Origin: Escherichia coli | GTDB lineage: Bacteria; Pseudomonadota; Gammaproteobacteria; Enterobacterales; Enterobacteriaceae | Assembly: GCF_001677475.2 (NCBI RefSeq) | Contig: NZ_CP015229.1 | DNA: 64,000 nt | Strand: one strand, 5' to 3' | Shown here: piece after piece, positions 1 through 12,722 of the stretch | How the letters are laid out: each line of letters opens with the position of its first letter | How positions within the stretch are numbered: the stretch's first letter is position 1 | The notes under the pieces: model-generated | Database searches by the model: none | The model's input: only the letters and a program-made list of their open reading frames with translations | Told to the model about the DNA's origin: nothing | Made by a program: the position numbers and the translations under genes

Positions 1-480
1 GACACTTTGTTGTGCCGGGCGGTTTTGCAGAGAAGCGATCACTTCTTCGGTATCCAGATAATGGTAAGCCAGCATATAGGTGAGCTCATCAAGCACCACT
101 AAGTCGTAACGCTTGTCAGCCAGCATCCGTTTGCTTTCCGACCAGACCTCTTTCGCCGCGTCGATATCCGCTTGTCGGTTCTGTGTTTCCCAGGTAAAAC
201 CGGTTCCCATAATATGAAACTCAACCCCCAGCGGCTGGAGAAGGTTGTATTCGCCGTTGTCCCATTGCCCCTTGATGTACTGCGCAACCCCCACCGTTTT
301 GCCATGACCCACCGCGCGCGTCACAGTACCAAACGCGGCAGTGGATTTCCCTTTGCCGTTGCCGGTGAAAACAATCAAGATCCCTTTTTTCTCTATCGCC
401 GCCGCGACGCGCGTATCGACCTGTTCCTTCAATTTCTGCTGGCGCTGCACATGCCGTTCTGTTGAAATTCGCGCTTCCAT
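1..480 (-). CDS. ATP:cob(I)alamin adenosyltransferase paralog (BtuR/CobA/CobO family), N-terminal part; gene continues past window start
   Basis: Minus-strand frame from ATG (complement 478-480) with AGGA Shine-Dalgarno upstream; translation MEARISTERHVQRQQKLKEQVDTRV...GILIVFTGNGKGKSTAAFG...VVLDELTYM matches BtuR P-loop and motifs. Not in ORF track because it runs off the window. Confidence 0.8.
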   Translation of the reverse strand, partial: MEARISTERHVQRQQKLKEQVDTRVAAAIEKKGILIVFTGNGKGKSTAAFGTVTRAVGHGKTVGVAQYIKGQWDNGEYNLLQPLGVEFHIMGTGFTWETQNRQADIDAAKEVWSESKRMLADKRYDLVVLDELTYMLAYHYLDTEEVIASLQNRPAQQSV

Positions 481-489
481 TCATTTTCC

Positions 490-2142
490 TTAATGTCCCG
501 CAGGGCAACTGGCGCAGCGGTGTTGCTGCTCAAACTGACTAAAGAAATTATTGCCTTTATCATCTACCAGGATGAATGCGGGCAGATTTTCCACTTCCAT
601 CATCCACACCGCTTCCATACCCAGCTCCGGGTATTCAAGGCAACGCAGACTTTTGACATATTCTTGCGCCAGTAACGCAGCTGCACCGCCAATACTTCCC
701 AGATTGAAGCCGCCATGTTTGTGACAGGCATCGGTGACCTGCTGGCTGCGGTTACCTTTCGATAACATCACCAGACTGCCGCCAGCCGCCTGGAAGGTAT
801 CGACATAACCGTCCATTCGACCGCCCGTGGTTGGACCCAGTGAACCGCAGGCCATGTTCTCCGGTGTTTTCGCCGGGCCAGCGTAATAGACAATATGATG
901 CTTCAGGTAATCCGGCATCGGTTCGGCGCTATCCAGCCGCGCTTTTATTTTGGCGTGGGCGATATCGCGTGCCACTACGATGGGACCACTTAACGACACG
1001 CGGGTGCCTACCGGTAATCTGGCGAGATCCTGCATCACGTCACGCAACGGACGGTTTAGATCCAGATGTACATGTTGCGCGTGATTTTCTTCCCGCAGTG
1101 AGGCTGGAATATATTGCCCCGGATTGTGTTCGAGTTTTTCCAGCCAGATACCGTGCTTGTTAATTTTTGCTTTGATATTGCGATCGGCAGAACAGGAGAG
1201 CGCCATAGCTATCGGACAAGAGCCACCGTGACGCGGCAGACGAATGACGCGAATATCATGAGCGAAATATTTACCCCCAAATTGCGCACCAATACCAAAT
1301 TGCTGACTGGCCTCGAGCAACACTTTTTCCAGCTCAATATCACGGAATGCTTGTCCCTGCTCGTTTCCGCTGGTGGGCAAATTGTCGTAATATTTCGTTG
1401 AGGCCAGCTTGGCAACTTTTAAGGTTTGATCGGCTGAAAGCCCTCCGACGACAAAGGCGATGTGGTAAGGCGGGCAGGCAGCGGTGCCCAGCGATTTCAT
1501 TTTTTCGATTAAAAATGCGGTCAGTTTTTCTGGTTGCAATAAGGATTTGGTTTCCTGATAAAGTGCGGCTTTATTGGCGGAGCCGCCCCCTTTATTAACA
1601 CAGAGAAAATGGTACTCATTACCAGCGACAGCGTTGATATCAATCTGCGCCGGGAGATTGGTTTGCGTATTGACTTCGGTATACATATCCAGCGGCGCAT
1701 TTTGTGAAAAGCGCAGATTATTTTCCTGGAAAGTGGTGTAAATGCCTTTGCTTAAGGCTTCAGCGTCGTTACCTCCGGTCCATATCTGTTGCCCTTTACT
1801 GGCAACAATAGTTGCGGTGCCGGTATCCTGACAGTTGGGTAATACCCCTTTTGCTGAGACTTCAGCATTACGTAATAACTGCAACGCAACGTATTTATCA
1901 TTACTACTGGCCTGCGGATCGTTAAGAATGCTGGCGACCTGTTGCAAATGAGCGGAACGTAAGAAAAAAGAAGCTTCATAAAATGCCTGCCGGGCAAGCA
2001 GCGTTAATGCTTCAGGTGCGATTTTTATCACTTCTTCGCCGTCTAATTCCGTTACTGTAATATGCTGATCGCTAATTAATGTATATTCTGTACCGTCTTT
2101 ATTTTGTAGAAATGGTTCTTGCCAGATAAATGGTTTGGACAT
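490..2142 (-). CDS. fumD: Class I (Fe-S) fumarate hydratase family; probable mesaconase/fumarase
   Basis: 550-aa ORF, length and sequence typical of FumA/FumB-type hydro-lyases; sits in a glutamate mutase/methylaspartase cluster. The fumD symbol is from my recollection of the E. coli O157:H7 locus. Confidence 0.8.
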
Positions 2143-2249
2143 ATTTCACTTTTCACCTTAAACGTTAGTGTTACTTAATTGCCGTCTAACTTCATGATCC
2201 GGCTTATAAAAATGCATAGTCATTGGCTTCTGATTGCTTAAGATCCCCC

Positions 2250-3530
2250 TCAGGGCAGAGCAACGTTCGATTCATTGGGTTTTAATGCTTTACCCCGACA
2301 GCCCTCGCCGAAATGTTCGCCTTCCCACCGACTCACCATCGCAGCGCCCATTGCGTTGCTCATGACGTTTGTCGCGGAACGCCCCATATCAAGGAACGGA
2401 TCAACGCCCATCAGCAAGATCAGCCCCGCTTCCGGAATATTGAACTGGTTGAGCGTGGCGGCGATAACCACCATTGAAGCGCGTGGTACGCCAGCCATTC
2501 CTTTCGAGGTCAACATCAGGATCAACAGCATGGTGATTTGCTCACCGATGGATAAATGGATATTGCAGGCCTGGGCGATGAAAACTGTGGCGAAGGAGCA
2601 GTAGGCCATTGATCCAACGAGATTAAATGAGTAGCCAATGGGTAAGACAAAGCTGGCAATTTTGGGGGAAACGCCAAATTGCTCCAGTTTTTCAAGCGTT
2701 CCTGGAAAAGCCGCTTCAGAACTGGATGTGGTAAATGCCAGCAGGGCGGGTTCCGAAAGGGCGCGGGTCAGGCGTCTGATGCAGGGGCCGACATAAACGA
2801 TGGCCAGACCGATAAGCAGCACCCAAAGTAACAACATGGTGAAATAAAATTCACCCATAAAGATCCCGGCGCTCACCATAACTGCCAGTCCTCGTTCAGC
2901 AATCAATGCTGAAATAGCGGCGAATACGGTCAGGGGAGCGAAGAGCATGACGTAGCCAGTGAGCTTTAACATGGCATGTGCCAGCGAATCTAAGGCGTGA
3001 ACGATGGCGCTGCCTTTCTCGCCAATCGCCGTCAGGCTACAGCCGAGGAAAATTGAGAACACCACGATTTGCAAAATTTCATTGTGCGCCATGGCATCGA
3101 CAATGCTGGTGGGGAAAGCATGCGAAATAAATACTTTTAGCGTGAAGGGTTCTGACGCGACCACTCCAGTGGTTTCGGCACCGTGTGCAACAAAATTAAT
3201 TCCTGTACCTGGCATGAAGAAATTTACTGTTATTAAGCCTAAGGCAATTGACAGCAATGAGGCGCAAATAAATAAAAAGAGTGTTTTAGAAAAAATACGA
3301 CCAAGGGCTTTGGCATCGCCCATTTTAGCAATACCTACCACCAGGGTAGAGACCACTAACGGAGCGATAATCATTTTTATCAGTCGTAAGAAAATCGTCG
3401 TGAATATCGATATTTCTTGCGCATAGAGTTTTGCGGTTTCCGGTGAAGCAGTGTTATTGAGCACTACGCCGATAACCATTCCAAGTACCAGCGCCAAAAG
3501 AATCATCGTGGTTAAACTTATTTTCTTCAT
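2250..3530 (-). CDS. Dicarboxylate/amino acid:cation symporter (GltP/DctA-like), possible glutamate or C4/C5-dicarboxylate transporter
   Basis: Hydrophobic multi-TM ORF with DAACS-like motifs; start chosen at MKKISL (complement ATG 3528-3530) preceded by GGAGG; ORF-track start at 3551 rejected. Confidence 0.75.
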   Translation of the reverse strand: MKKISLTTMILLALVLGMVIGVVLNNTASPETAKLYAQEISIFTTIFLRLIKMIIAPLVVSTLVVGIAKMGDAKALGRIFSKTLFLFICASLLSIALGLITVNFFMPGTGINFVAHGAETTGVVASEPFTLKVFISHAFPTSIVDAMAHNEILQIVVFSIFLGCSLTAIGEKGSAIVHALDSLAHAMLKLTGYVMLFAPLTVFAAISALIAERGLAVMVSAGIFMGEFYFTMLLLWVLLIGLAIVYVGPCIRRLTRALSEPALLAFTTSSSEAAFPGTLEKLEQFGVSPKIASFVLPIGYSFNLVGSMAYCSFATVFIAQACNIHLSIGEQITMLLILMLTSKGMAGVPRASMVVIAATLNQFNIPEAGLILLMGVDPFLDMGRSATNVMSNAMGAAMVSRWEGEHFGEGCRGKALKPNESNVALP

Positions 3531-3580
3531 TTTTTCCTCCATCAGGTGCACGGCGATAAATCAGAATCAGGAGAAGTAGA

Positions 3581-3602
3581 TGCCTGAATAGAGATTCAGG
3601 CA
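3581..3602 (-). other. Perfect hairpin (tgcctgaat-aga-attcaggca) in intergenic gap inside the island operon
   Basis: Inverted repeat read directly between the DUF4387-like gene stop and the transporter start. Confidence 0.4.
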
Positions 3603-3690
3603 TCTACCTGCTATTACAACCTTACAAATAGCTGAAGTGTTGAACTGCAATAAGTGACGGGATGTCAGTTGGCTAAAAGTGTTCGGATTT

Positions 3691-4008
3691 TTACAAATCG
3701 AAACTCATATTTAATAAAGGTGCATGTTGCTGTGCACCATAGACATCATTGTCACCTACATTCCCGGAGATAATATCTCGTGGCATGACGATTTTTACTG
3801 CGTTAGAAGGATCAAACCAGACAATACGATGAATAAAGTCAGGTTCAACATGATATAAGCGCGCAATCAGTTCTGGGGTTAATTGCCCTGATGATTTAAC
3901 TCGCTCATAGTTTTCTTTGGTTTTAAATAAAATATCTAAAACCAGTTCGTAAGGTCCGGCATTTTTCGAACGAATGACTTGCGCCAGTGAGACAATTGAC
4001 TGTTTCAT
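3691..4008 (-). CDS. Small conserved protein of unknown function (DUF4387-like), partner of upstream AtuA-like gene
   Basis: 105-aa ORF; start overlaps upstream gene stop by 4 bp; family assignment from memory of DUF1446/DUF4387 pairing. Confidence 0.6.
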   Translation of the reverse strand: MKQSIVSLAQVIRSKNAGPYELVLDILFKTKENYERVKSSGQLTPELIARLYHVEPDFIHRIVWFDPSNAVKIVMPRDIISGNVGDNDVYGAQQHAPLLNMSFDL

Positions 4009-5375
4009 GCCTGAACTCCTTCTGGCGTCACCTGTTCAATATGGAAATCAAAACGCAGAGCGTCGTTGGCTTCAATCAGGTGATATATGGAAAATTCGTA
4101 TACTGGCCCGCCCTGGATATCAGAAGGGGAGAACGGGAACGCCAGGTTGCCTGCGGTAGCGATGCGGTTTTCATAGCCGTAGTGCAGCATAGTAGAGCGC
4201 ACCAGCGAGCAAACGCTGTTGGCAATTTCCTGGGTCGATGCAACTACATCTAGCACAATCCCCAGCTCATGCCCGGCAGTTTGCATCGGTTCATGGTCGC
4301 CCATCACCCCGTTTTTGCCGTACAGGTGGAAATTGATGCGAATGCTGTCATCGTCGAGCGACAGGTTACGCGAAACGCTGGTTTTGACTTCATCGATGAT
4401 TTTATCGATCCCGGCGATCATGATCGGGTCGCGCGTTCCTGCGATGGTCAGACAGCGGAAGCCCACTCGTCGCGCACCTTCCAGTTTCAGGGCATACGGC
4501 GTTCCTTCATGCTTAGAACCGCTGACGTACACTTCGCCGTCATTGACCGCTTTAAATGTGCAGCCTTTCAGGTTCAACACGCCGCCAGGTCCAGGCAGGA
4601 AGTAGGGATCGGATTTCTCATACAGTGTGTGTGCAGCCGCTGACGTTTCGGTAAATTTACGCTTCGGATTAAATGTCTTCAGCGTAAAGCCGTTGTCATC
4701 AATGATGCCCATCGCACAGTCAGAGCCTGAGCCGGGCGTTGCGGCGATTGCCGCGCATTCAAGGATTTTCCCACAATGCAGCGCCAGACCTTCATCAAAG
4801 CCTTGCATGATCGGTAGCGCAGCAAAGCAGGCCGGGTCGTAAGCGCGCCCGCCCAGCACCACTTGCGCGCCTTCTTTCAGCGCCTGCTGGAAGGGTTCGA
4901 TGCCCATTTGCGCGACGATATACGTACTTTCGTCAATCGCGTCGTGGGTTAACGGCGGGACAAAATCCAGCGCCGTGATTTTGCCGTTATCCAGCGCCTG
5001 GTGGACGATGGCTTTGTCAACGTCTGCCGGGATCAACGCCATCGAGAACGAGAGGTGCTCTTCCCGGGCAATCTCATGAATTATTTCTCGGCACCACTCC
5101 AGGTGTGGTGCGGCACCAGAACCGCCAGCCGTTCCGATCACCACCGGTATATTATTTTGCACGCCTGCGGTGATCATATAGCGCAGATCGCGCTTGACCC
5201 CTGCGCGATCGGTAAACGGTTTGCCTGCCCCGAGGTAGTGGGGGCCTGGATCGGAAGAGCCTGCATCAACGGCGATCAGATCGGGCGATTCTGCCATCGC
5301 TTTGCGGAAGCTCTCTTCCGGGAATCCATACCCGAGGATTGCCGTTGGCGATAAGACTTTAAAAGAACGAGCCAT
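4005..5375 (-). CDS. AtuA-like (DUF1446) family protein of unknown function
   Basis: 456-aa ORF, in-operon between methylaspartase and the DUF4387-like gene; family call from sequence feel, not a search. Confidence 0.6.
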   Translation of the reverse strand: MARSFKVLSPTAILGYGFPEESFRKAMAESPDLIAVDAGSSDPGPHYLGAGKPFTDRAGVKRDLRYMITAGVQNNIPVVIGTAGGSGAAPHLEWCREIIHEIAREEHLSFSMALIPADVDKAIVHQALDNGKITALDFVPPLTHDAIDESTYIVAQMGIEPFQQALKEGAQVVLGGRAYDPACFAALPIMQGFDEGLALHCGKILECAAIAATPGSGSDCAMGIIDDNGFTLKTFNPKRKFTETSAAAHTLYEKSDPYFLPGPGGVLNLKGCTFKAVNDGEVYVSGSKHEGTPYALKLEGARRVGFRCLTIAGTRDPIMIAGIDKIIDEVKTSVSRNLSLDDDSIRINFHLYGKNGVMGDHEPMQTAGHELGIVLDVVASTQEIANSVCSLVRSTMLHYGYENRIATAGNLAFPFSPSDIQGGPVYEFSIYHLIEANDALRFDFHIEQVTPEGVQA

Positions 5376-5378
5376 TTG

Positions 5379-6620
5379 TTAATCCTTAGCCTGCAACAGC
5401 GCGATAGTACGATTCATTTCGTTGAAGACAATATCGAGGCCTTCGTCAAAGCCCATCCCAGGTTTTACCAGCATACGCATAGGGCGAGCGGCAAGGGCGA
5501 CGTGGACACAGGTGCGTGCACTGACATCAGTTTCATTGCAGGTGCCGCCCTGGTACGCTTCCATGTTGTGGCTGTTGCAATAAAGAACTGCATCGACGAT
5601 GTTGTGAATACTGCCCAGATCCGGGGTTTTGATTTGCACCATGTGGCAACTGGCGGCATCAGTGAAATCAACAATATCCTGGTAGGTGTTACACCATTCA
5701 TCGGCCACAATTTTCACGCCGGAACCGAGGCGCATCAGCTCTTTGGTAATCGCGGTCAGCAGGCGAATTTGATCGGGCTTGTTACCGGCATCGACCGGCC
5801 CTTCAATGTAGAGCGGCAGGCCTTGCGCTTCTTTTTCCAGGCTGGCGATGTATTGCGCACAGCGAAGCGGATCCATATCGAAGATCAGACCGATAGTGCC
5901 GTATACATCGATGTGCAGGGTTGGGTGGTAGCGTGCGCTGGTGCGCTTGCTCAGAATGCGATCCGACAGCCAGCGGACATATTCGCGCAGTTTTTCACCT
6001 TTAAAGCCCAGCTTCTCTTCGACGTTATTAATCAGCGCATGGGGCAGCACGTCGATGCCTTTAAGGATCATCTTATCGACGGCGATATATCGATCGTCGC
6101 CGCTCTGACCAAATAATGGAATGGATTCCGCCACGCGTGGCAACTGCCATTCATCACAGACCACTTCAGTTTTCAGACGGCCGGTTGCCAGCGCGGCAGC
6201 ATCAAGCAGCGCCTGTGATAATCCGTAGCGCACGGCGGTATGCAGCAAGTTGCCGTCAATACGCAATTTGTCGAAGAAACGGGCATTCGGCAGGAAAGCA
6301 TCCACATCGCGGCCTACCAGTAATGGCTTAATATGGTCGTTGAGGAACGGAATAAAGTGCTCTGCGAGGAACAGTGGATCGCGACCACCTGCCCCGGAAT
6401 ACTGTACGGCAGCACAGTCACCTACAGCGACCGCGCCGTTTTCCAGAATCAACTGTACCGATACGCACTCCCCAGCCTGACGTACGGCGTTAAACCCTTG
6501 TGTTACTGGCTCCCCGGTATAAAAAAAGCCGTCGTGACCCGCTCCGTTTTTTATCGCCTGCTGGTCATCGAAATAGAATGAGGAATAGCCAGCGGTGAAC
6601 AGGGCCTGTTTTATTTTCAT
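5379..6620 (-). CDS. 3-methylaspartate ammonia-lyase (methylaspartase)
   Basis: 413-aa ORF with blocks CAAVQYSGAGGRDPLF, HIDVYGTIG, HMVQIKTPDLG, KPGMG.DEG matching clostridial methylaspartase; enolase-superfamily length. Confidence 0.9.
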   Translation of the reverse strand: MKIKQALFTAGYSSFYFDDQQAIKNGAGHDGFFYTGEPVTQGFNAVRQAGECVSVQLILENGAVAVGDCAAVQYSGAGGRDPLFLAEHFIPFLNDHIKPLLVGRDVDAFLPNARFFDKLRIDGNLLHTAVRYGLSQALLDAAALATGRLKTEVVCDEWQLPRVAESIPLFGQSGDDRYIAVDKMILKGIDVLPHALINNVEEKLGFKGEKLREYVRWLSDRILSKRTSARYHPTLHIDVYGTIGLIFDMDPLRCAQYIASLEKEAQGLPLYIEGPVDAGNKPDQIRLLTAITKELMRLGSGVKIVADEWCNTYQDIVDFTDAASCHMVQIKTPDLGSIHNIVDAVLYCNSHNMEAYQGGTCNETDVSARTCVHVALAARPMRMLVKPGMGFDEGLDIVFNEMNRTIALLQAKD

Positions 6621-8065
6621 TATGGTCTTCCTATTAATTTACTGTGGGATACAGCATTGATGTCATCTACAACCATCTGGAATGTCGGTTGGCGTCCTTC
6701 AAAGCGTGCGCGTTCCGCAACGTAATCGTGGTGGAGGTCGAGAATATCTTTTGGCAATGGAACGGCTCCGGCTTCCAGTACGCGTATCGCGCCGGTGTTG
6801 TCACGGACCGGAAGAATTTTGCCCGCGTTGCAGGCGGCTGGCGCAAATGGCACATCCAGTACGCCCGCTTCAAATGCCAGCACCGTTCCGCGCGCAATAT
6901 CATCATTACCCAGTTCGAACACTTTATTCAGTACTGCGCGAACCTCGCTCTTAATCAGTTCAATTTCCAGTTCAACCGCAGGGCACGGCGGAAATTTCTG
7001 CTCATTGACCATGTTGAGCATCTGGCGGGAGGCTTTTAGCCCCTGAATGTTGGCAGCGGCAGTCGGGATGCCCCAGGCTTCGTGCGGACTTTTGGTGATG
7101 ACTTTGGTGGCACCAGACATCCCCGCGACGGCTGCGCCCCAGGAGATAATAGCGAACGCTTTCGATTCGTCTTCCGGAAAGCCGCCCATCCACTGGTGAA
7201 ACACGGTACTTAATTCATAGTCGGTATAGCCATAGCTCTGAAAGTAGTCATGTGCAAGTTCACGCAGAGACTGGATCGCCGCAACATCCTGCGTCAGGCT
7301 GCCGACCTGTCCATAACCAACGGTGATAGATTTCACACCCTGTTCCAGTGCCAGCAATCCTTCGATTATCGCGATAGAGTGCGAGATAAACGGCGGGATC
7401 AGCGTACCCGTTAGTGGGCCAAACGGTTCGCGGTTGATGCGGATCCCGTGTTCTTCATACATCCCCATTAAACGGTCGCAGTACTGCCAGTCGCGGATCG
7501 ATTTTTCCAGCGTTACGCGTTTGGCATACGGAATGTTGTAGGAAATGCCGCCGCCTTCATAACTGGTAAAGCCGCTGGACATCGAGATTTCAGCCAGCAG
7601 ACGTGCATCTGGCGTGCCGTGGCGGATCTGTAGCGGTTTTTGCAGGGTTTCGGTGAGGCGACGGCAAGCAGCGACACCATGGTTAACTACCGGTAAACCG
7701 TTCAGTTTAGAGGTTCCGGCTTCGATGGATTTTTTAATCCCTACAGCCGCTTCTTCGTACCGATTCAGACGGGTATATGCATCGATGGTGCTTGGCAGCA
7801 GATCGCACTCTTCTTGTAGTGTTTTCAGTAGTTCGATGTGTTCGTCCATCAGCGCCACACCTGCGCGTGGTTGGCTAAGGGTTTTTCCTTCCTTGTCTGC
7901 TTTCAGCAGCGCAAGAGAGAAGCGTTTATGCTCAGGAATGGTTTGTTGGTATTTAACGCCATCTTCAAAGTTTTCAACATCCTTGCCGGTTTCCCAGGTT
8001 TTCAGTACCTGTTGCCGCTCGGTCATGAATTCGTCATGGGTTAATTTCTTATTTCGAAGTTCCAT
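6620..8065 (-). CDS. Glutamate mutase epsilon (E, catalytic) subunit
   Basis: 481-aa ORF; MELRNKK..., PRAGVALMDEHIELL, HGTPDARLLAEI, FHQWMGGFPEDESKAF match GlmE/MutE; 1-bp overlap with downstream methylaspartase gene. Confidence 0.9.
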   Translation of the reverse strand: MELRNKKLTHDEFMTERQQVLKTWETGKDVENFEDGVKYQQTIPEHKRFSLALLKADKEGKTLSQPRAGVALMDEHIELLKTLQEECDLLPSTIDAYTRLNRYEEAAVGIKKSIEAGTSKLNGLPVVNHGVAACRRLTETLQKPLQIRHGTPDARLLAEISMSSGFTSYEGGGISYNIPYAKRVTLEKSIRDWQYCDRLMGMYEEHGIRINREPFGPLTGTLIPPFISHSIAIIEGLLALEQGVKSITVGYGQVGSLTQDVAAIQSLRELAHDYFQSYGYTDYELSTVFHQWMGGFPEDESKAFAIISWGAAVAGMSGATKVITKSPHEAWGIPTAAANIQGLKASRQMLNMVNEQKFPPCPAVELEIELIKSEVRAVLNKVFELGNDDIARGTVLAFEAGVLDVPFAPAACNAGKILPVRDNTGAIRVLEAGAVPLPKDILDLHHDYVAERARFEGRQPTFQMVVDDINAVSHSKLIGRP

Positions 8066-8083
8066 TGATTGCAGCCTTAATTG

Positions 8084-9472
8084 TTATAGGGTTAAGCATT
8101 GAATACTGGTGCGCGCGGCGGCCAGCGGATCGACTCTGGCGACGTTTGCCAGCAGTGGTAATAGCCCCCGGGAATCGCGGTAATATTCAAATTCGGTCGG
8201 TAAGAGAATGCGTTTACCGTCGTCGTTTAACTCGCGGTATTTCAACCAGTGATGCATATCGAACTGACTGGCACGCGAGAGCCATCCGCCGGAACCCACG
8301 ACTTTACGCACGGTTGTCAGGTCACGTCCCATCTGTAAATCGACATTGCCGACGCAGGTGCAGACCTCTTTTTTGGTGCCCGCATGTCTTTCGGTGGCAT
8401 AACCCACACACAGTCCGGCCAGGACGGTATCGAAATATTTCTCTTCTGCATTTGCGGGTAAGTAGTCGGGATGAGCGACTAAATGACGGAGATAATGATA
8501 AAAAGCGTCCAGCTGTGCGGGTTGCTGAGCAAAATTCACATTGACTAACTCTTTCGCACTTTCACCAACCACCACTGCCGAGACGCGCATTCCCAGATCG
8601 CCTTCCACCGTCCGTTTTACGAAGGGTTCCGGTACGCCGTGTAAAACGGTGTCGGGCGAGAGCGTGTTGGCACAGGCGGAATAGACATCGGTGGTTGCGC
8701 CGCCCATGTCGATCAGCATGAACTCTTTCCAGCTGTGATCGACGTTACTGATTGCCTTAACCAGTTCAAAGACCGTCCATGGTGTCGGCCTTGGTTCTTC
8801 GCCTGTTTTATCAACAATGACATCCAGCCCTTTCCCTTTAACGATGCGTTTAAGGAATATGTCGCAAATAGCCTGGCGTGCGGCTAAAGGGTTCGGATGG
8901 TCAAGATCGGGCAGAACGTTGTCGACGATGGTCAGGTCTTTATGCCCGAGGAGCTCCTGCACCTCGTCCTGAATATCCCGGTTTCCGGCATAAATAATGG
9001 CGCAGTCGAGTTGGGATTCTGCCAGCACACGGGCGTTATTCAGTCCGTAACTTTCTTCTCCGCCGTCGGTGCCGCCGGTGAACAAGAGAATATCGGGCTG
9101 CGTTTCTTCCAGTGCCTGGATATCACGGCGGTTCAGCTTGTAGGAGTAATATTGCGCAATTTTAGCCCCCGCAGAGTGAGCGGTTACTTTCGCGGTTTCC
9201 AGGGTGATAGAAGGCACCAATCCCATTGCGGCAACCGCCAGCCCACCTTTGGCAGAGGAGGAATACTTTAATGCAACCTCACCACTGTTTAACAGGGGGA
9301 GGGCATCATCTACGTTTAACACCTGGTCCAGGCTGGAGAAAAACCCCTTCGCCAGATGATGGGTGGTGGTTGGGGTCAGAACGTGGTTAACCAACGTTAA
9401 CGCGTCCCCCTCCCGGGTGAAGAGGGCTGCTTTGGTCCACGTCGAACCAATATCGACAGAGACGATTTGCAT
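8084..9472 (-). CDS. Glutamate mutase component L (MutL/GlmL-type putative reactivating chaperone)
   Basis: 462-aa ORF between the S and E subunit genes, the position GlmL occupies in clostridial operons; N-terminus [18 protein letters not shown] is actin/hsp70-fold like. Confidence 0.8.
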   Translation of the reverse strand: MQIVSVDIGSTWTKAALFTREGDALTLVNHVLTPTTTHHLAKGFFSSLDQVLNVDDALPLLNSGEVALKYSSSAKGGLAVAAMGLVPSITLETAKVTAHSAGAKIAQYYSYKLNRRDIQALEETQPDILLFTGGTDGGEESYGLNNARVLAESQLDCAIIYAGNRDIQDEVQELLGHKDLTIVDNVLPDLDHPNPLAARQAICDIFLKRIVKGKGLDVIVDKTGEEPRPTPWTVFELVKAISNVDHSWKEFMLIDMGGATTDVYSACANTLSPDTVLHGVPEPFVKRTVEGDLGMRVSAVVVGESAKELVNVNFAQQPAQLDAFYHYLRHLVAHPDYLPANAEEKYFDTVLAGLCVGYATERHAGTKKEVCTCVGNVDLQMGRDLTTVRKVVGSGGWLSRASQFDMHHWLKYRELNDDGKRILLPTEFEYYRDSRGLLPLLANVARVDPLAAARTSIQCLTL

Positions 9473-9921
9473 CAGATTGCCTCTTCAAGAATGCGAGTAT
9501 CAACGTCATGACGTTGGTTGATATCGTGGGCCATCAGCTGACAAACATCTTCTAAGTCATGACTTGGGGAAAAGACGCGATCAAATCCCATCTCTTTGAA
9601 CTTGGTTTCCACGTCAGCGAAGTCATGTTTTCCGACCACCAGGTTACCGCCCACATAGAGCAGGATGTTACCCAGCCCACGCTCGATGCAGCGTTCGCGC
9701 ATGCCCAGACAATCGATATCGCCATGCCCATAGATAGAAGAGACGACAATCGCGTCAGCGCCAGTTTCAATAGCAGCATCAATATATTCGTCCTGGCTGA
9801 CCATTACGCCCAGATTAATGACTCTGAAGTCGTGGTTGCTAAAAACGCGGTCCAGAACTTTATTGCCTACTGCATGGCAGTCCGCGCCAATAACGCCAAT
9901 CACAAGTGTTGCTTTCTTCAT
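9472..9921 (-). CDS. Glutamate mutase sigma (S, B12-binding) subunit
   Basis: [24 protein letters not shown] carries the DxHxxG cobalamin-binding motif; start moved to internal ATG (complement 9919-9921) with AAGGA SD; ORF-track start 9984 rejected. Confidence 0.9.
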
Positions 9922-10468
9922 GGGTAATCCTTTGTAAGACAGAGAGTAAAATAAGTTACACACGTCGTATTTATGGCCGCTCATAACGGCACAGGTTTAA
10001 TATCACAGGAGTGTCTTTATCTGACCGTAATGTTGCAATTGATCTATTTTCAAAATGTCTTTCGGGAAATGATTGTTTAAAGTGTGTTTTCAAATTCTCA
10101 TTTTAATTCAGTGTGTTATGTCAACTAATGTCATGAATGTTAAATTTTTAAAATTAACTTGATTTGATGTATTGAGATAATTGTGATCAACTTCTAATTT
10201 GCATTTTTGTGACGTGGCTTTAGCCATGAGTAAATGCATTTCATAAAAGTTAAGTCGAATTTCACTGCAATTCATCTCTGCTTAATGTAAAAATAATGTT
10301 GAAAATAACAAATAATTAATGATTCATGCGAATTATGACCTTTGTTAGCTCTTTTGATTTTTCGTAAAAAAGAAAAGCACATGAAGGTGCTACCAGTACG
10401 AGAAACGTTAATCAAAAGTTTTATTACGTCTGGCAATAACGCAGGCCATTTTTCGCGACAGGAGGGAT
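9922..10468 (-). promoter_or_regulatory. AT-rich leader/promoter region of the glutamate mutase operon
   Basis: About 550 bp non-coding, very AT-rich, directly upstream of the first operon gene; no specific sites identified. Confidence 0.4.
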
Positions 10469-10891
10469 TTAATCAGTATAATCCTCATACAATAGGTCAG
10501 GATTTACAGAACCGTTAACGGGGTTTTGGTGTTGAAATTTAGAAATGGTGGAGTCAATCAATGAAGACAGTATCGAAAAAATGACTGTGTCAGAACTAAT
10601 TTCAATTAATCCTTCTCGTTGTTGATCAAAAAAGATATTTATCTTGATTTCATTTGTACTACGGCAATCAATATGTAGTAATTTTTGATCGCTGAGATTT
10701 TCTGTTTCATAAATGTTTTTGGCGATAGTCGGATGTATTGATGCCAGACATCTGCTCAGATAAGCCATATCCTTTAAGGAACTCCCCGCTGAGTAGAGGA
10801 TGTCAGAGAATTTTTGTGTGTCAACTGTTGTCTCTGAAGCGTATGTTGCATTGACAGGAAGAGTATTGAAAGAGATCTGAGATGGTATCAT
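10469..10891 (-). CDS. Hypothetical acidic small protein (140 aa), second gene of AT-rich two-gene module
   Basis: Complete ORF in AT-rich DNA; Asp/Glu-rich, no motif I recognise. Confidence 0.55.
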   Translation of the reverse strand: MIPSQISFNTLPVNATYASETTVDTQKFSDILYSAGSSLKDMAYLSRCLASIHPTIAKNIYETENLSDQKLLHIDCRSTNEIKINIFFDQQREGLIEISSDTVIFSILSSLIDSTISKFQHQNPVNGSVNPDLLYEDYTD

Positions 10892-10972
10892 TATTTAAAT
10901 CTTTCCGTGAGTAATAAAAATTAATCCCCAGGCATTGTTTAGCAATATTTGCCATAGGGGATATATAGAAAA

Positions 10973-11917
10973 TTAAAGTATTTTATTGGCTTCGGTTAAC
11001 TGATCTATAACCAGTGCCAGATTGGTAAACATTTTGAAAAAGCGATACTGGCTCGGAATATCTCTTTCAAAGACGAAACATTCAAGGTCATTGTTTGAAA
11101 AATAAAGGACTAGTGTTGCTGATTCGTCAGGGAAAACATGGAAATGTATCTGGTTACCAGAAGGAGGATAGTCCAGAAGAAGGGTATCTTTGCCCGTCAC
11201 ATACCTGTTGTTGTCGTGGACGCTACGCTCACACTTCATCAGAGGTGTCAGGATACTCATGTATTCATCTGATGTTAATTTATTAAAATCATCATTCATT
11301 TTAAAGAAACGATAAAGTAACAGTACATCCTCTTGCGTAACCGGTTCGTTTGTTTTTAGAGGGAAATAAGCGGGAACCAGAAGATGAGGTTCTAATCTAT
11401 TTTGTTGAGCGCTATAACTGAATTTGAACATAAATTCTGGATCGCTCATCAATTGAGCGACATAATTATGCCTGGCTTCAAAAATTTTAATTTTTATCAG
11501 GTTGAATAAGTCTGTTTCGTCATCCTGTATTAAAAGACATTGGCCATAGCAGCCTGGATTTTTTTCATTATAAGCAGAAACGGTTATTCTGTCAGAGGTG
11601 TCAACGTTATATTCAAAAGCCAGATAGTGACCTTCTTCATCGCGATTTGTTTCCAGGTTATTTAAATTCATCACATGAAGTGTTTGCAATGCTGATTCAA
11701 TGAGTTGTTGACTCTCTGAGGTAAATGTTTTGCGCTGCGTTGTATAAAGTGTATCAATTCCAACGACTATCCGATGTGGATCAAGGATGGCGGCAATCAT
11801 CTTTATTACCTGCACAGTCACGGGTGATGTCATTGATTCTTCATCTGTTTTTAGAGGATCATTAGATGGCCAACCTGAGAAGCGATTGACAGCCGAACCG
11901 ATATTATCTGGACTCAT
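10973..11917 (-). CDS. Hypothetical protein (314 aa), first gene of AT-rich two-gene module
   Basis: Complete ORF, same strand and 81 bp upstream of the 140-aa ORF; no TM segments or known motifs recognised; spot-checked 60-bp lines are about one-third G+C. Confidence 0.55.
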   Translation of the reverse strand: MSPDNIGSAVNRFSGWPSNDPLKTDEESMTSPVTVQVIKMIAAILDPHRIVVGIDTLYTTQRKTFTSESQQLIESALQTLHVMNLNNLETNRDEEGHYLAFEYNVDTSDRITVSAYNEKNPGCYGQCLLIQDDETDLFNLIKIKIFEARHNYVAQLMSDPEFMFKFSYSAQQNRLEPHLLVPAYFPLKTNEPVTQEDVLLLYRFFKMNDDFNKLTSDEYMSILTPLMKCERSVHDNNRYVTGKDTLLLDYPPSGNQIHFHVFPDESATLVLYFSNNDLECFVFERDIPSQYRFFKMFTNLALVIDQLTEANKIL

Positions 11918-12722
11918 AGCAGCAACCTCATTGTAATCAAGCGAGGCGCTGAGCGTACTCGGCTATAGAAAAACTAACTTGCAAAAATCGCTCATTTTTC
12001 ATTTATCAGGCGAAAGTGGCCTCTGTTCACTCAGAAACAATCACTCCCGCTAAGTCATACCTGTTTCATCGATACATTTAAGTGATTATTACTAATGAAA
12101 CAATAACATAACGGGCTTACGGTCGGTGCTCATAAAGGCAACAATCAATTAACTTTGATAAAAATATGTTATGTAAAATAGCAACAAATTGGCTACTCTA
12201 ATCAATTGGTATTATAAAAAGAGGATAAGGCGGTTCTGTTAAATAAAACACTGGTTTTTTATCTATACCTTTTCATTGTAATAATTGTGTTGCATAAATA
12301 TTTCACAATAAATTAACAATAAAATCACCAATGATCTATGGTTTATACATAATTAACATATTTGGTTGGTTTTGATATAAATCAATTTTTAATTCTTGAA
12401 AAAAATCTGCAAAACACGATAAATTGTCGTAGATCAAATTGGTGAGATCGTGACAATTTCGCTATAAATTGATCACTGTCGAAAAATGCAAATTTGCTCA
12501 ATAAAAACCTGTTTATTGTAAGGATTTTGCGGCGTAATATAATTACGGGATCAATTTGGTTTATTCATTAACATATTTGTAACTTTTTTATCATTGTCTT
12601 TTCCTCTTTTGATGAAATGGCAACGATAGAGGCGAGCAAATAATTTTGTATTGGGGCATGCGTGTGACCCTTTCTAACGGGGTTCACTCTCGGAGTCTTC
12701 ATGCGATGAGCAAGGAGTCATG
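11918..12722 (+). promoter_or_regulatory. cydAB upstream regulatory region, AT-rich
   Basis: Long AT-rich non-coding region before cydA; in E. coli the cydAB promoters are controlled by ArcA, FNR and H-NS (established knowledge); individual sites not resolved by eye. Confidence 0.5.

Follow-up and report, generated by a model that had tools for sequence, protein, structure and literature searches.

We analyzed two adjacent open reading frames (ORFs), here called orf314 and orf140, in a window of 64,000 nucleotides (nt) from Escherichia coli (NCBI RefSeq assembly GCF_001677475.2, contig NZ_CP015229.1), where they lie between a glutamate-fermentation island and cydA of the cytochrome bd operon. 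On balance we think it probable that they are real orphan genes of restricted lineage within a block of AT-rich DNA, long resident on the cydA flank, silenced, and serving a conditional role. Both were found on the minus strand, precisely where the original prediction had placed two co-oriented ORFs of these lengths: orf314 at 10973..11917, encoding 314 amino acids (aa) with an isoelectric point (pI) of 4.77, and orf140 at 10469..10891, encoding 140 aa with a pI of 4.56. They correspond to the ECs0767/WP_001310136 and ECs0766/WP_000613119 families, respectively; the ECs numbering is that of the E. coli O157:H7 Sakai annotation, in which both are described as "hypothetical protein". The low G+C content and the A/T-ending codons noticed at first inspection were borne out by measurement, as orf314 has 38.2% G+C and a third-position G+C fraction (GC3) of 0.35 and orf140 has 35.9% and 0.33, versus 48-54% and 0.52-0.65 for the comparison genes glmS, glmL, glmE, and cydAB; the window as a whole has 50.6% G+C. 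The low-GC block extends from ~9900 to ~12700 and includes the spacer to glmS and the entire orf314/cydA intergenic region. The smaller protein is acidic, as had been predicted, but its acidity does not distinguish it from its larger neighbor. A hydropathy scan predicted no transmembrane segment in either protein, in agreement with the earlier assessment (maximum Kyte-Doolittle 19-residue means of 1.25 for orf314 and 1.52 for orf140), and no nuclease, ATPase, or other enzyme motif and no DNA-binding domain was detected in either. We conclude that the products are soluble, acidic, cytoplasmic proteins.

Several independent properties demonstrated that orf314 and orf140 are genuine protein-coding genes under weak purifying selection. 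Their lengths far exceed those expected by chance; in the 945-nt stretch of orf314 the other five frames contained 15-35 stops each. As the reference orthologue of orf314 we used the Escherichia albertii gene at locus L002, which has 64% amino-acid and 76.7% nucleotide identity to it. Over 945 nt the two genes differed by 220 substitutions, with no indels and no new stops, and when neutral evolution was simulated 20,000 times under the substitution spectrum seen here, the frame stayed open in just 0.085% of the runs (P = 0.00085). The differences fell preferentially at the third codon position (101, versus 65 and 54 at the other two). Ratios of nonsynonymous to synonymous change (dN/dS), calculated by the Nei-Gojobori method, were summarized as 0.34-0.46 for orf314; they came to 0.40-0.45 in comparisons of the two species and to 0.23-0.57 among E. 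coli sequences, with the bootstrap confidence interval below 1 throughout; for orf140 they ranged from 0.14 to 0.49, with intervals that excluded 1 only marginally. Residues 56-112 of orf140 were almost invariant, all of the changes being located in the N-terminus and the C-terminal tail, and the best-conserved parts of orf314 were residues 31-90 and 301-314. The stop-rich alternative frames, the retention of the ORFs, the third-position bias, the dN/dS values below 1, and the conserved core of orf140 together led us to conclude that the genes are real. That the constraint on them is weak follows from the divergence of orf314, which equals that of flanking non-coding DNA, and from the dN of the pair, which is ~10 times that of glmE, glmS, and cydA.

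Searches for relatives of the two proteins consistently returned the same narrow family. Neither had a significant match in Pfam, NCBIfam, PADLOC, or PHROGs, or in the PDB by sequence or by profile, in keeping with the original prediction that no domain would be recognizable; in these profile and structure searches no confident homology to a characterized family appeared, and the genes stay undescribed. In PADLOC-DB 2.0, orf314 had no match and orf140 only a noise-level one, to Cmr6 (E = 0.0096, 13.9 bits). A word-indexed search of 5.8 billion clusters found Escherichia/Shigella proteins only, and a HMMER profile run against 1.84 billion representatives gave 14 matches, each a fragment of the same family. 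When 100,044 GTDB species genomes were scanned, the matches were confined to E. albertii and two contigs from metagenome-assembled genomes (MAGs) that resembled E. coli. These contigs, L003 (JAIJJM010000209.1, assigned to a 'Collinsella sp.') and L004 (DXKH01000067.1, assigned to a 'Citrobacter sp.'), encode both proteins with 92-93% amino-acid identity to those of E. coli, and on L004, at least, the glm genes accompany them in unchanged order; most likely both are E. coli sequence mis-binned into the MAGs. From these sequence searches we regard the pair as ORFans restricted to Escherichia/Shigella. Models made with AlphaFold2 from the shallow alignments were unreliable, with mean confidence (pLDDT) values of 50 for orf314 and 39 for orf140. 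In Foldseek searches the best E against the PDB with the orf140 model was not under 0.37, and searches of AFDB50 yielded Escherichia/Shigella family members only, at template-modeling (TM) scores of just 0.39-0.48 to those models. All fold matches obtained with these models were treated as noise.

The distribution of the pair was determined in 5,426 complete E. coli genomes, in which orf314 and orf140 each matched 1,135 genomes and glmE-glmL matched 1,131. Carriers thus make up about one fifth of the genomes, ~79% lacking the whole segment, and in E. coli the pair and the glutamate island are inherited as one segment. The co-occurrence anticipated for the two genes was therefore seen in E. coli; because the pair is linked to the entire island, however, it is uninformative on function, and in E. 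albertii it did not hold. Carriers include O157:H7, O145:H28, and the enteropathogenic E. coli (EPEC) strain type O127:H6, and both genes were also intact in human extraintestinal E. coli, such as a bloodstream strain and sequence type (ST) 648. In 29 of 30 sampled carrier genomes a contiguous 945-bp orf314 was annotated as intact. In strain MEI003 (H51, NZ_CP071263.1 4550393-4551142), whose record is the nearest to the window among those of E. coli, orf140 spans 750 bp in two pieces annotated as two hypothetical proteins, so that ~327 bp must have been inserted or duplicated within the gene.

The arrangement in E. albertii was particularly informative. There orf314 adjoins cydA at the same position, and the glutamate island is absent, which supported the proposal that the pair had an origin separate from that of the island. 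At both E. albertii loci orf140 is a pseudogene with stops and frameshifts; orf314 is intact at L002 as well as in a sequence cluster with 131 members. As orf314 persists where orf140 has decayed, the two are not an obligate pair and the orf314 product is independent of orf140, so that the term "two-gene module" used for them originally is not supported. At the second locus, L005, from the type strain NBRC 107761, orf314 is frameshifted into pieces of 209 and 108 aa and a 258-aa gene for a protein resembling an outer membrane protein (OMP) is reduced to 114 aa (positions 6001-6946 and 7862-8206); both of these genes are intact at L002, so the disruptions at L005 represent local decay in one strain. 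The synonymous divergence (dS) between E. coli and E. albertii was 0.56 for orf314 and 0.31 for cydA, in line with a long history of the gene at this place. No phage copies were found, and the 'plasmid' matches were all mislabelled chromosomes of 0.7-4.9 Mb. Because the position on the cydA side is the same in E. albertii, and copies on phages and true plasmids are absent, we conclude that the pair is not mobile and that the genes are old chromosomal residents of the cydA flank whose inheritance looks vertical since before the E. coli/E. albertii split.

The content of the interval between sucD and cydA (about 1-12346 in the window) varies, and at least four states of occupancy were distinguished: mngRAB in K-12-type strains, a tetratricopeptide (TPR)-repeat protein in strain A26, the glutamate island plus orf314/orf140 in the window, and the 258-aa OMP-like gene, decayed orf140, and orf314 in E. 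albertii. No remnants of orf314 or orf140 were found in the K-12-type and A26-type loci. No integrase, insertion sequence (IS), or tRNA gene occurs at the junctions, and the closest tRNAs, a Lys/Val cluster, are 21.8 kb away; the lack of a tRNA or integrase boundary had been noted correctly.

The genes are nearly untranscribed under standard conditions. In the RNA sequencing data of Landstorfer et al. (2014; PMC4048457, Table S4) for strain EDL933, the four locus tags between glmS and cydA gave 0-12 reads per kilobase per million mapped reads (RPKM) in 11 conditions; in the same data cydA gave 13-212 RPKM in ten conditions and 2 in LB medium with antibiotics (PMC4048457). Any expectation that the pair would be active was thus not supported. 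In a compendium of enterohemorrhagic E. coli (EHEC) data the four tags rose jointly by 1.5-3.7 log2 units in two series of runs, and other silent AT-rich genes rose alongside them in those series. No orf314 or orf140 protein was detected in a proteome. The locus tags were not mentioned in the literature searched, and the supplements of PMC2241611, PMC5597208, and PMC4764244 contained nothing on the two genes.

We propose that the AT-rich block of ~2.7 kb would be kept silent through xenogeneic silencing of the H-NS type, as its AT-richness and transcriptional silence suggest, and that expression may be limited to conditions or backgrounds which were not sampled. The products might then act as non-enzymatic binding or adaptor proteins, and weak selection for a conditional role would retain both genes. 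The two proteins could also have a structural unit in common. In the predicted secondary structure, an arrangement made up of helices, three strands, and then one long helix occurs twice in orf314 and once in orf140, so that a helix/three-strand/helix unit may be shared, present in two copies in the larger protein and one in the smaller. In hhalign comparisons, residues 137-165 of orf314 paired with residues 108-136 of orf140 with E = 0.012 at best; BLASTP of one against the other was not significant. Of four comparisons made in a shuffle test, that of orf140 with E. albertii orf314 reached p = 0.004, and the other three were not significant. We treat the shared unit, which was drawn from these predictions, as a lead and not a result.

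The properties of the pair can be compared with those of a class of lineage-restricted E. coli ORFans in AT-rich, H-NS-silenced DNA, reportedly described by Daubin and Ochman in 2004. Like those genes, orf314 and orf140 are AT-rich, limited to one genus, and without homologues, show fast nonsynonymous change with dN/dS below 1, are barely expressed, and vary in presence among strains. Unlike them, the pair has no link to a prophage, IS, or integrase, and its position has been fixed since before E. albertii split off; in addition, at 314 aa orf314 is long for a typical ORFan. The label 'hypothetical' has been attached to the genes for 25 years, ever since O157 genomes were first annotated, and as E. 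coli ORFans they are ordinary; the new findings are their dating, the evidence for selection, and the exclusion of the module types proposed for them. Should a function emerge, for instance in the gut or upon relief from H-NS, a new protein family would be defined by it; otherwise the pair would be a well-dated case of long-lived, weakly constrained orphan genes.

A number of observations weigh against the explanation we favor. Binding of H-NS is deduced only from AT-richness and silence. The E. coli and E. albertii copies of orf314 are no more alike in nucleotide sequence than is the flanking non-coding DNA (74-78% identity), and in AT-rich genes the Nei-Gojobori method may understate dN/dS. 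The frameshifts in orf314 of the E. albertii type strain and the truncated or frameshifted orf140 variants in some E. coli and Shigella count against it as well and, together with the decay of orf140 in E. albertii, show that each gene is dispensable in some lineages. Finally, the signal of paralogy between the two proteins is weak, given the non-significant shuffle tests, and the structural models are of the low quality described above.

Many of these same observations would be expected if the genes were functionless relics of an ancient acquisition, drifting to pseudogenes, with open frames that reflect past selection. Transcription near background in the 11 conditions, the undetected protein, and the equal divergence of gene and surrounding non-coding DNA all fit such relics, as do the decayed and frameshifted E. 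albertii copies, the truncated variants, and the absence of the segment from most complete E. coli genomes. We nevertheless consider this explanation unlikely, although it accounts for the data better than the other alternatives: neutral simulations so seldom retained the frame, no indel had accumulated over 945 nt, the interval for orf314 dN/dS excluded 1 in every comparison, the core of orf140 was invariant, and nearly all of the sampled carriers had an intact gene.

A bolder version of the favored explanation holds that orf314 and orf140 are founders of an Escherichia-specific family of two-unit and one-unit proteins, resident by cydAB since before the species split, silenced in the laboratory and induced in the host, where they might serve as a new class of type III-secreted substrate or as new immunity or defense proteins. 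It takes the candidate shared unit and the long residence next to cydA together with one of the functions weighed in the two paragraphs that follow, and as a whole we find it rather improbable.

With regard to the first of these functions, one or both products might be type III-translocated effectors, carrying an N-terminal secretion signal, in attaching-effacing Escherichia. The content of Ser, Thr, Pro, Asn, and Gln in residues 2-25 was 0.46 for orf314 and 0.54 for orf140, the top values among the 50 large ORFs of the window, relative to a background N-terminal content of 0.26 +/- 0.10 and to 0.29 and 0.33 for the remainder of each protein; N-terminal composition, however, is by itself weak evidence. 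The extreme N-terminus of orf140 is invariant and both N-termini are predicted to be disordered, the genes are AT-rich and silent in the laboratory like nle genes, and the carriers include O157:H7, O145:H28, O127:H6, and E. albertii. The arrangement of a larger gene beside that of a small acidic protein of ~15 kDa, in AT-rich DNA of attaching-effacing lineages and E. albertii and with N-termini rich in Ser, Thr, Pro, and Asn, also recalls pairs of a type III effector and a class I chaperone such as Tir/CesT. In contrast to those pairs, neither protein had a match to any effector, CesT-like, or other chaperone Pfam domain, and the low-confidence orf140 model (pLDDT 39) had an order of predicted secondary-structure elements different from that of the class I chaperone fold. 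Because orf140 has decayed in E. albertii, it cannot be a required chaperone. Furthermore, there is neither a prophage nor an effector locus around the pair, and the genes are intact in the bloodstream and ST648 isolates, a comparison made by isolate source and not by type III secretion system status. Taken together, these findings make translocated effectors decidedly unlikely.

The second function would make the pair a two-gene conflict module, that is, a toxin-antitoxin (TA) system, a toxin with its immunity protein (perhaps in the form of an orphan immunity pair), or an anti-phage system of a new kind. The order of the genes, a larger one followed by a small acidic one, is that of such modules, and immunity proteins are typically small, acidic, and cytoplasmic. 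The short spacer between two small genes of like orientation, their placement in a variable interval flanked by core genes, and their fast-evolving, lineage-restricted sequences are likewise features shared with type II TA and two-gene anti-phage modules. However, both proteins are acidic and lack any enzymatic or DNA-binding domain, no PADLOC match of weight and no toxin, antitoxin, or Imm Pfam domain was found in either, and the genes have no catalogued homologue. They are separated by 81 bp and neither overlap nor are translationally coupled. Expression is the norm for TA and immunity genes, whereas orf314 and orf140 are almost silent; nor are they co-retained, since orf140 was lost with orf314 kept and orf314 was also lost in one strain. 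Their history is apparently vertical and off mobile DNA, no Rhs, CdiA, or type VI secretion system remnants were found nearby, and, unlike the neighbors of genes in defense islands, theirs are metabolic and respiratory genes. We therefore give little credence to a conflict module. For the toxin/immunity, effector/chaperone, and anti-phage layouts that had been suggested at the outset, the absence of PADLOC, toxin/antitoxin, and chaperone matches left nothing positive for any.

The possibility that the pair is an accessory of the glutamate-fermentation cluster was rejected in view of its E. albertii context, its composition, and a terminator-like hairpin between the two. The methylaspartate cluster of E. 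coli O157:H7 extends from fumD to glmS (Kronen and Berg 2015, PMC4682846), and the pair is adjacent to it, co-oriented, and almost always present with it in complete E. coli genomes. It differs from the cluster in having 36-38% instead of ~52% G+C, in being separated from it by a 484-bp spacer that includes the hairpin, and in that E. albertii has orf314 but lacks the cluster. The methylaspartate cluster has also been reported from other genera, in which we found no orf314 or orf140 homologue.

The non-coding DNA around the pair gave further indications of how it may be organized. The 81-bp spacer between orf314 and orf140 (10892..10972, minus strand, read from the sequence) contains a Shine-Dalgarno-like motif, GGAAAG, ~11 nt upstream of the orf140 start codon. 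Downstream of orf140, a consensus scan together with the sequence revealed a predicted terminator-like hairpin, AGCACCTTCATGTGCT, followed by a T-run (10366..10391, minus strand), which lies 78 nt past the orf140 stop and suggests that the orf314/orf140 transcript is separate from that of glmS. Upstream of orf314, the DNA is AT-rich as originally described, but it is not the pair's own, since cydA shares this divergent intergenic region of 802 bp. The orf314-proximal part (11918..12346), which presumably holds the orf314 promoter, has 77-78% identity to E. albertii and so diverges as quickly as orf314; a consensus scan found no strong sigma-70 consensus in this part, and a promoter scan did not exceed the shuffled expectation. 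The 484-bp spacer between orf140 and glmS (9985..10468) is AT-rich, with 31% G+C, and a divergent lineage of E. coli matches it at 91% identity. The small ORFs within it are probably spurious, and a former one, ECs0765, is gone from the present Sakai annotation. A search of Rfam at a permissive threshold gave no match, and a repeat search gave short chance-level matches only.

Two observations concern the neighboring glm genes. The longest ORF for glmS (9472-9984) has 170 aa with an ATG at 9984, whereas RefSeq and related loci give 149 aa from 9921; the 21 upstream codons are probably untranslated. For glmL (8084-9472), dN/dS was 0.19-0.25, clearly above the values for its operon partners in the same genome comparisons (0.03 for glmE and 0.05-0.09 for glmS).

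On the other side of the pair, the conserved 373-bp cydA-proximal region (12347..12719, plus strand) is the regulatory region of cydAB and does not belong to the pair. Its identity was 95% to E. albertii (93-98% when 12347-12722 was compared), 99% to strain A26, and ~79% to K-12-type strains. Between the window and the K-12 type, the identity was ~79% over the 375 bp up to the ATG, yet the cydA coding sequences were 98.9% identical. This combination of a divergent upstream haplotype with a nearly identical coding sequence points to an ancient recombination breakpoint where cydA begins, as judged from these alignments. The cydA regulatory region thus exists as deeply divergent haplotypes, of which the K-12 type, classified by identity band, occurs in ~3181 complete genomes, and such divergent upstream sequences could possibly confer lineage-specific regulation on cydAB.

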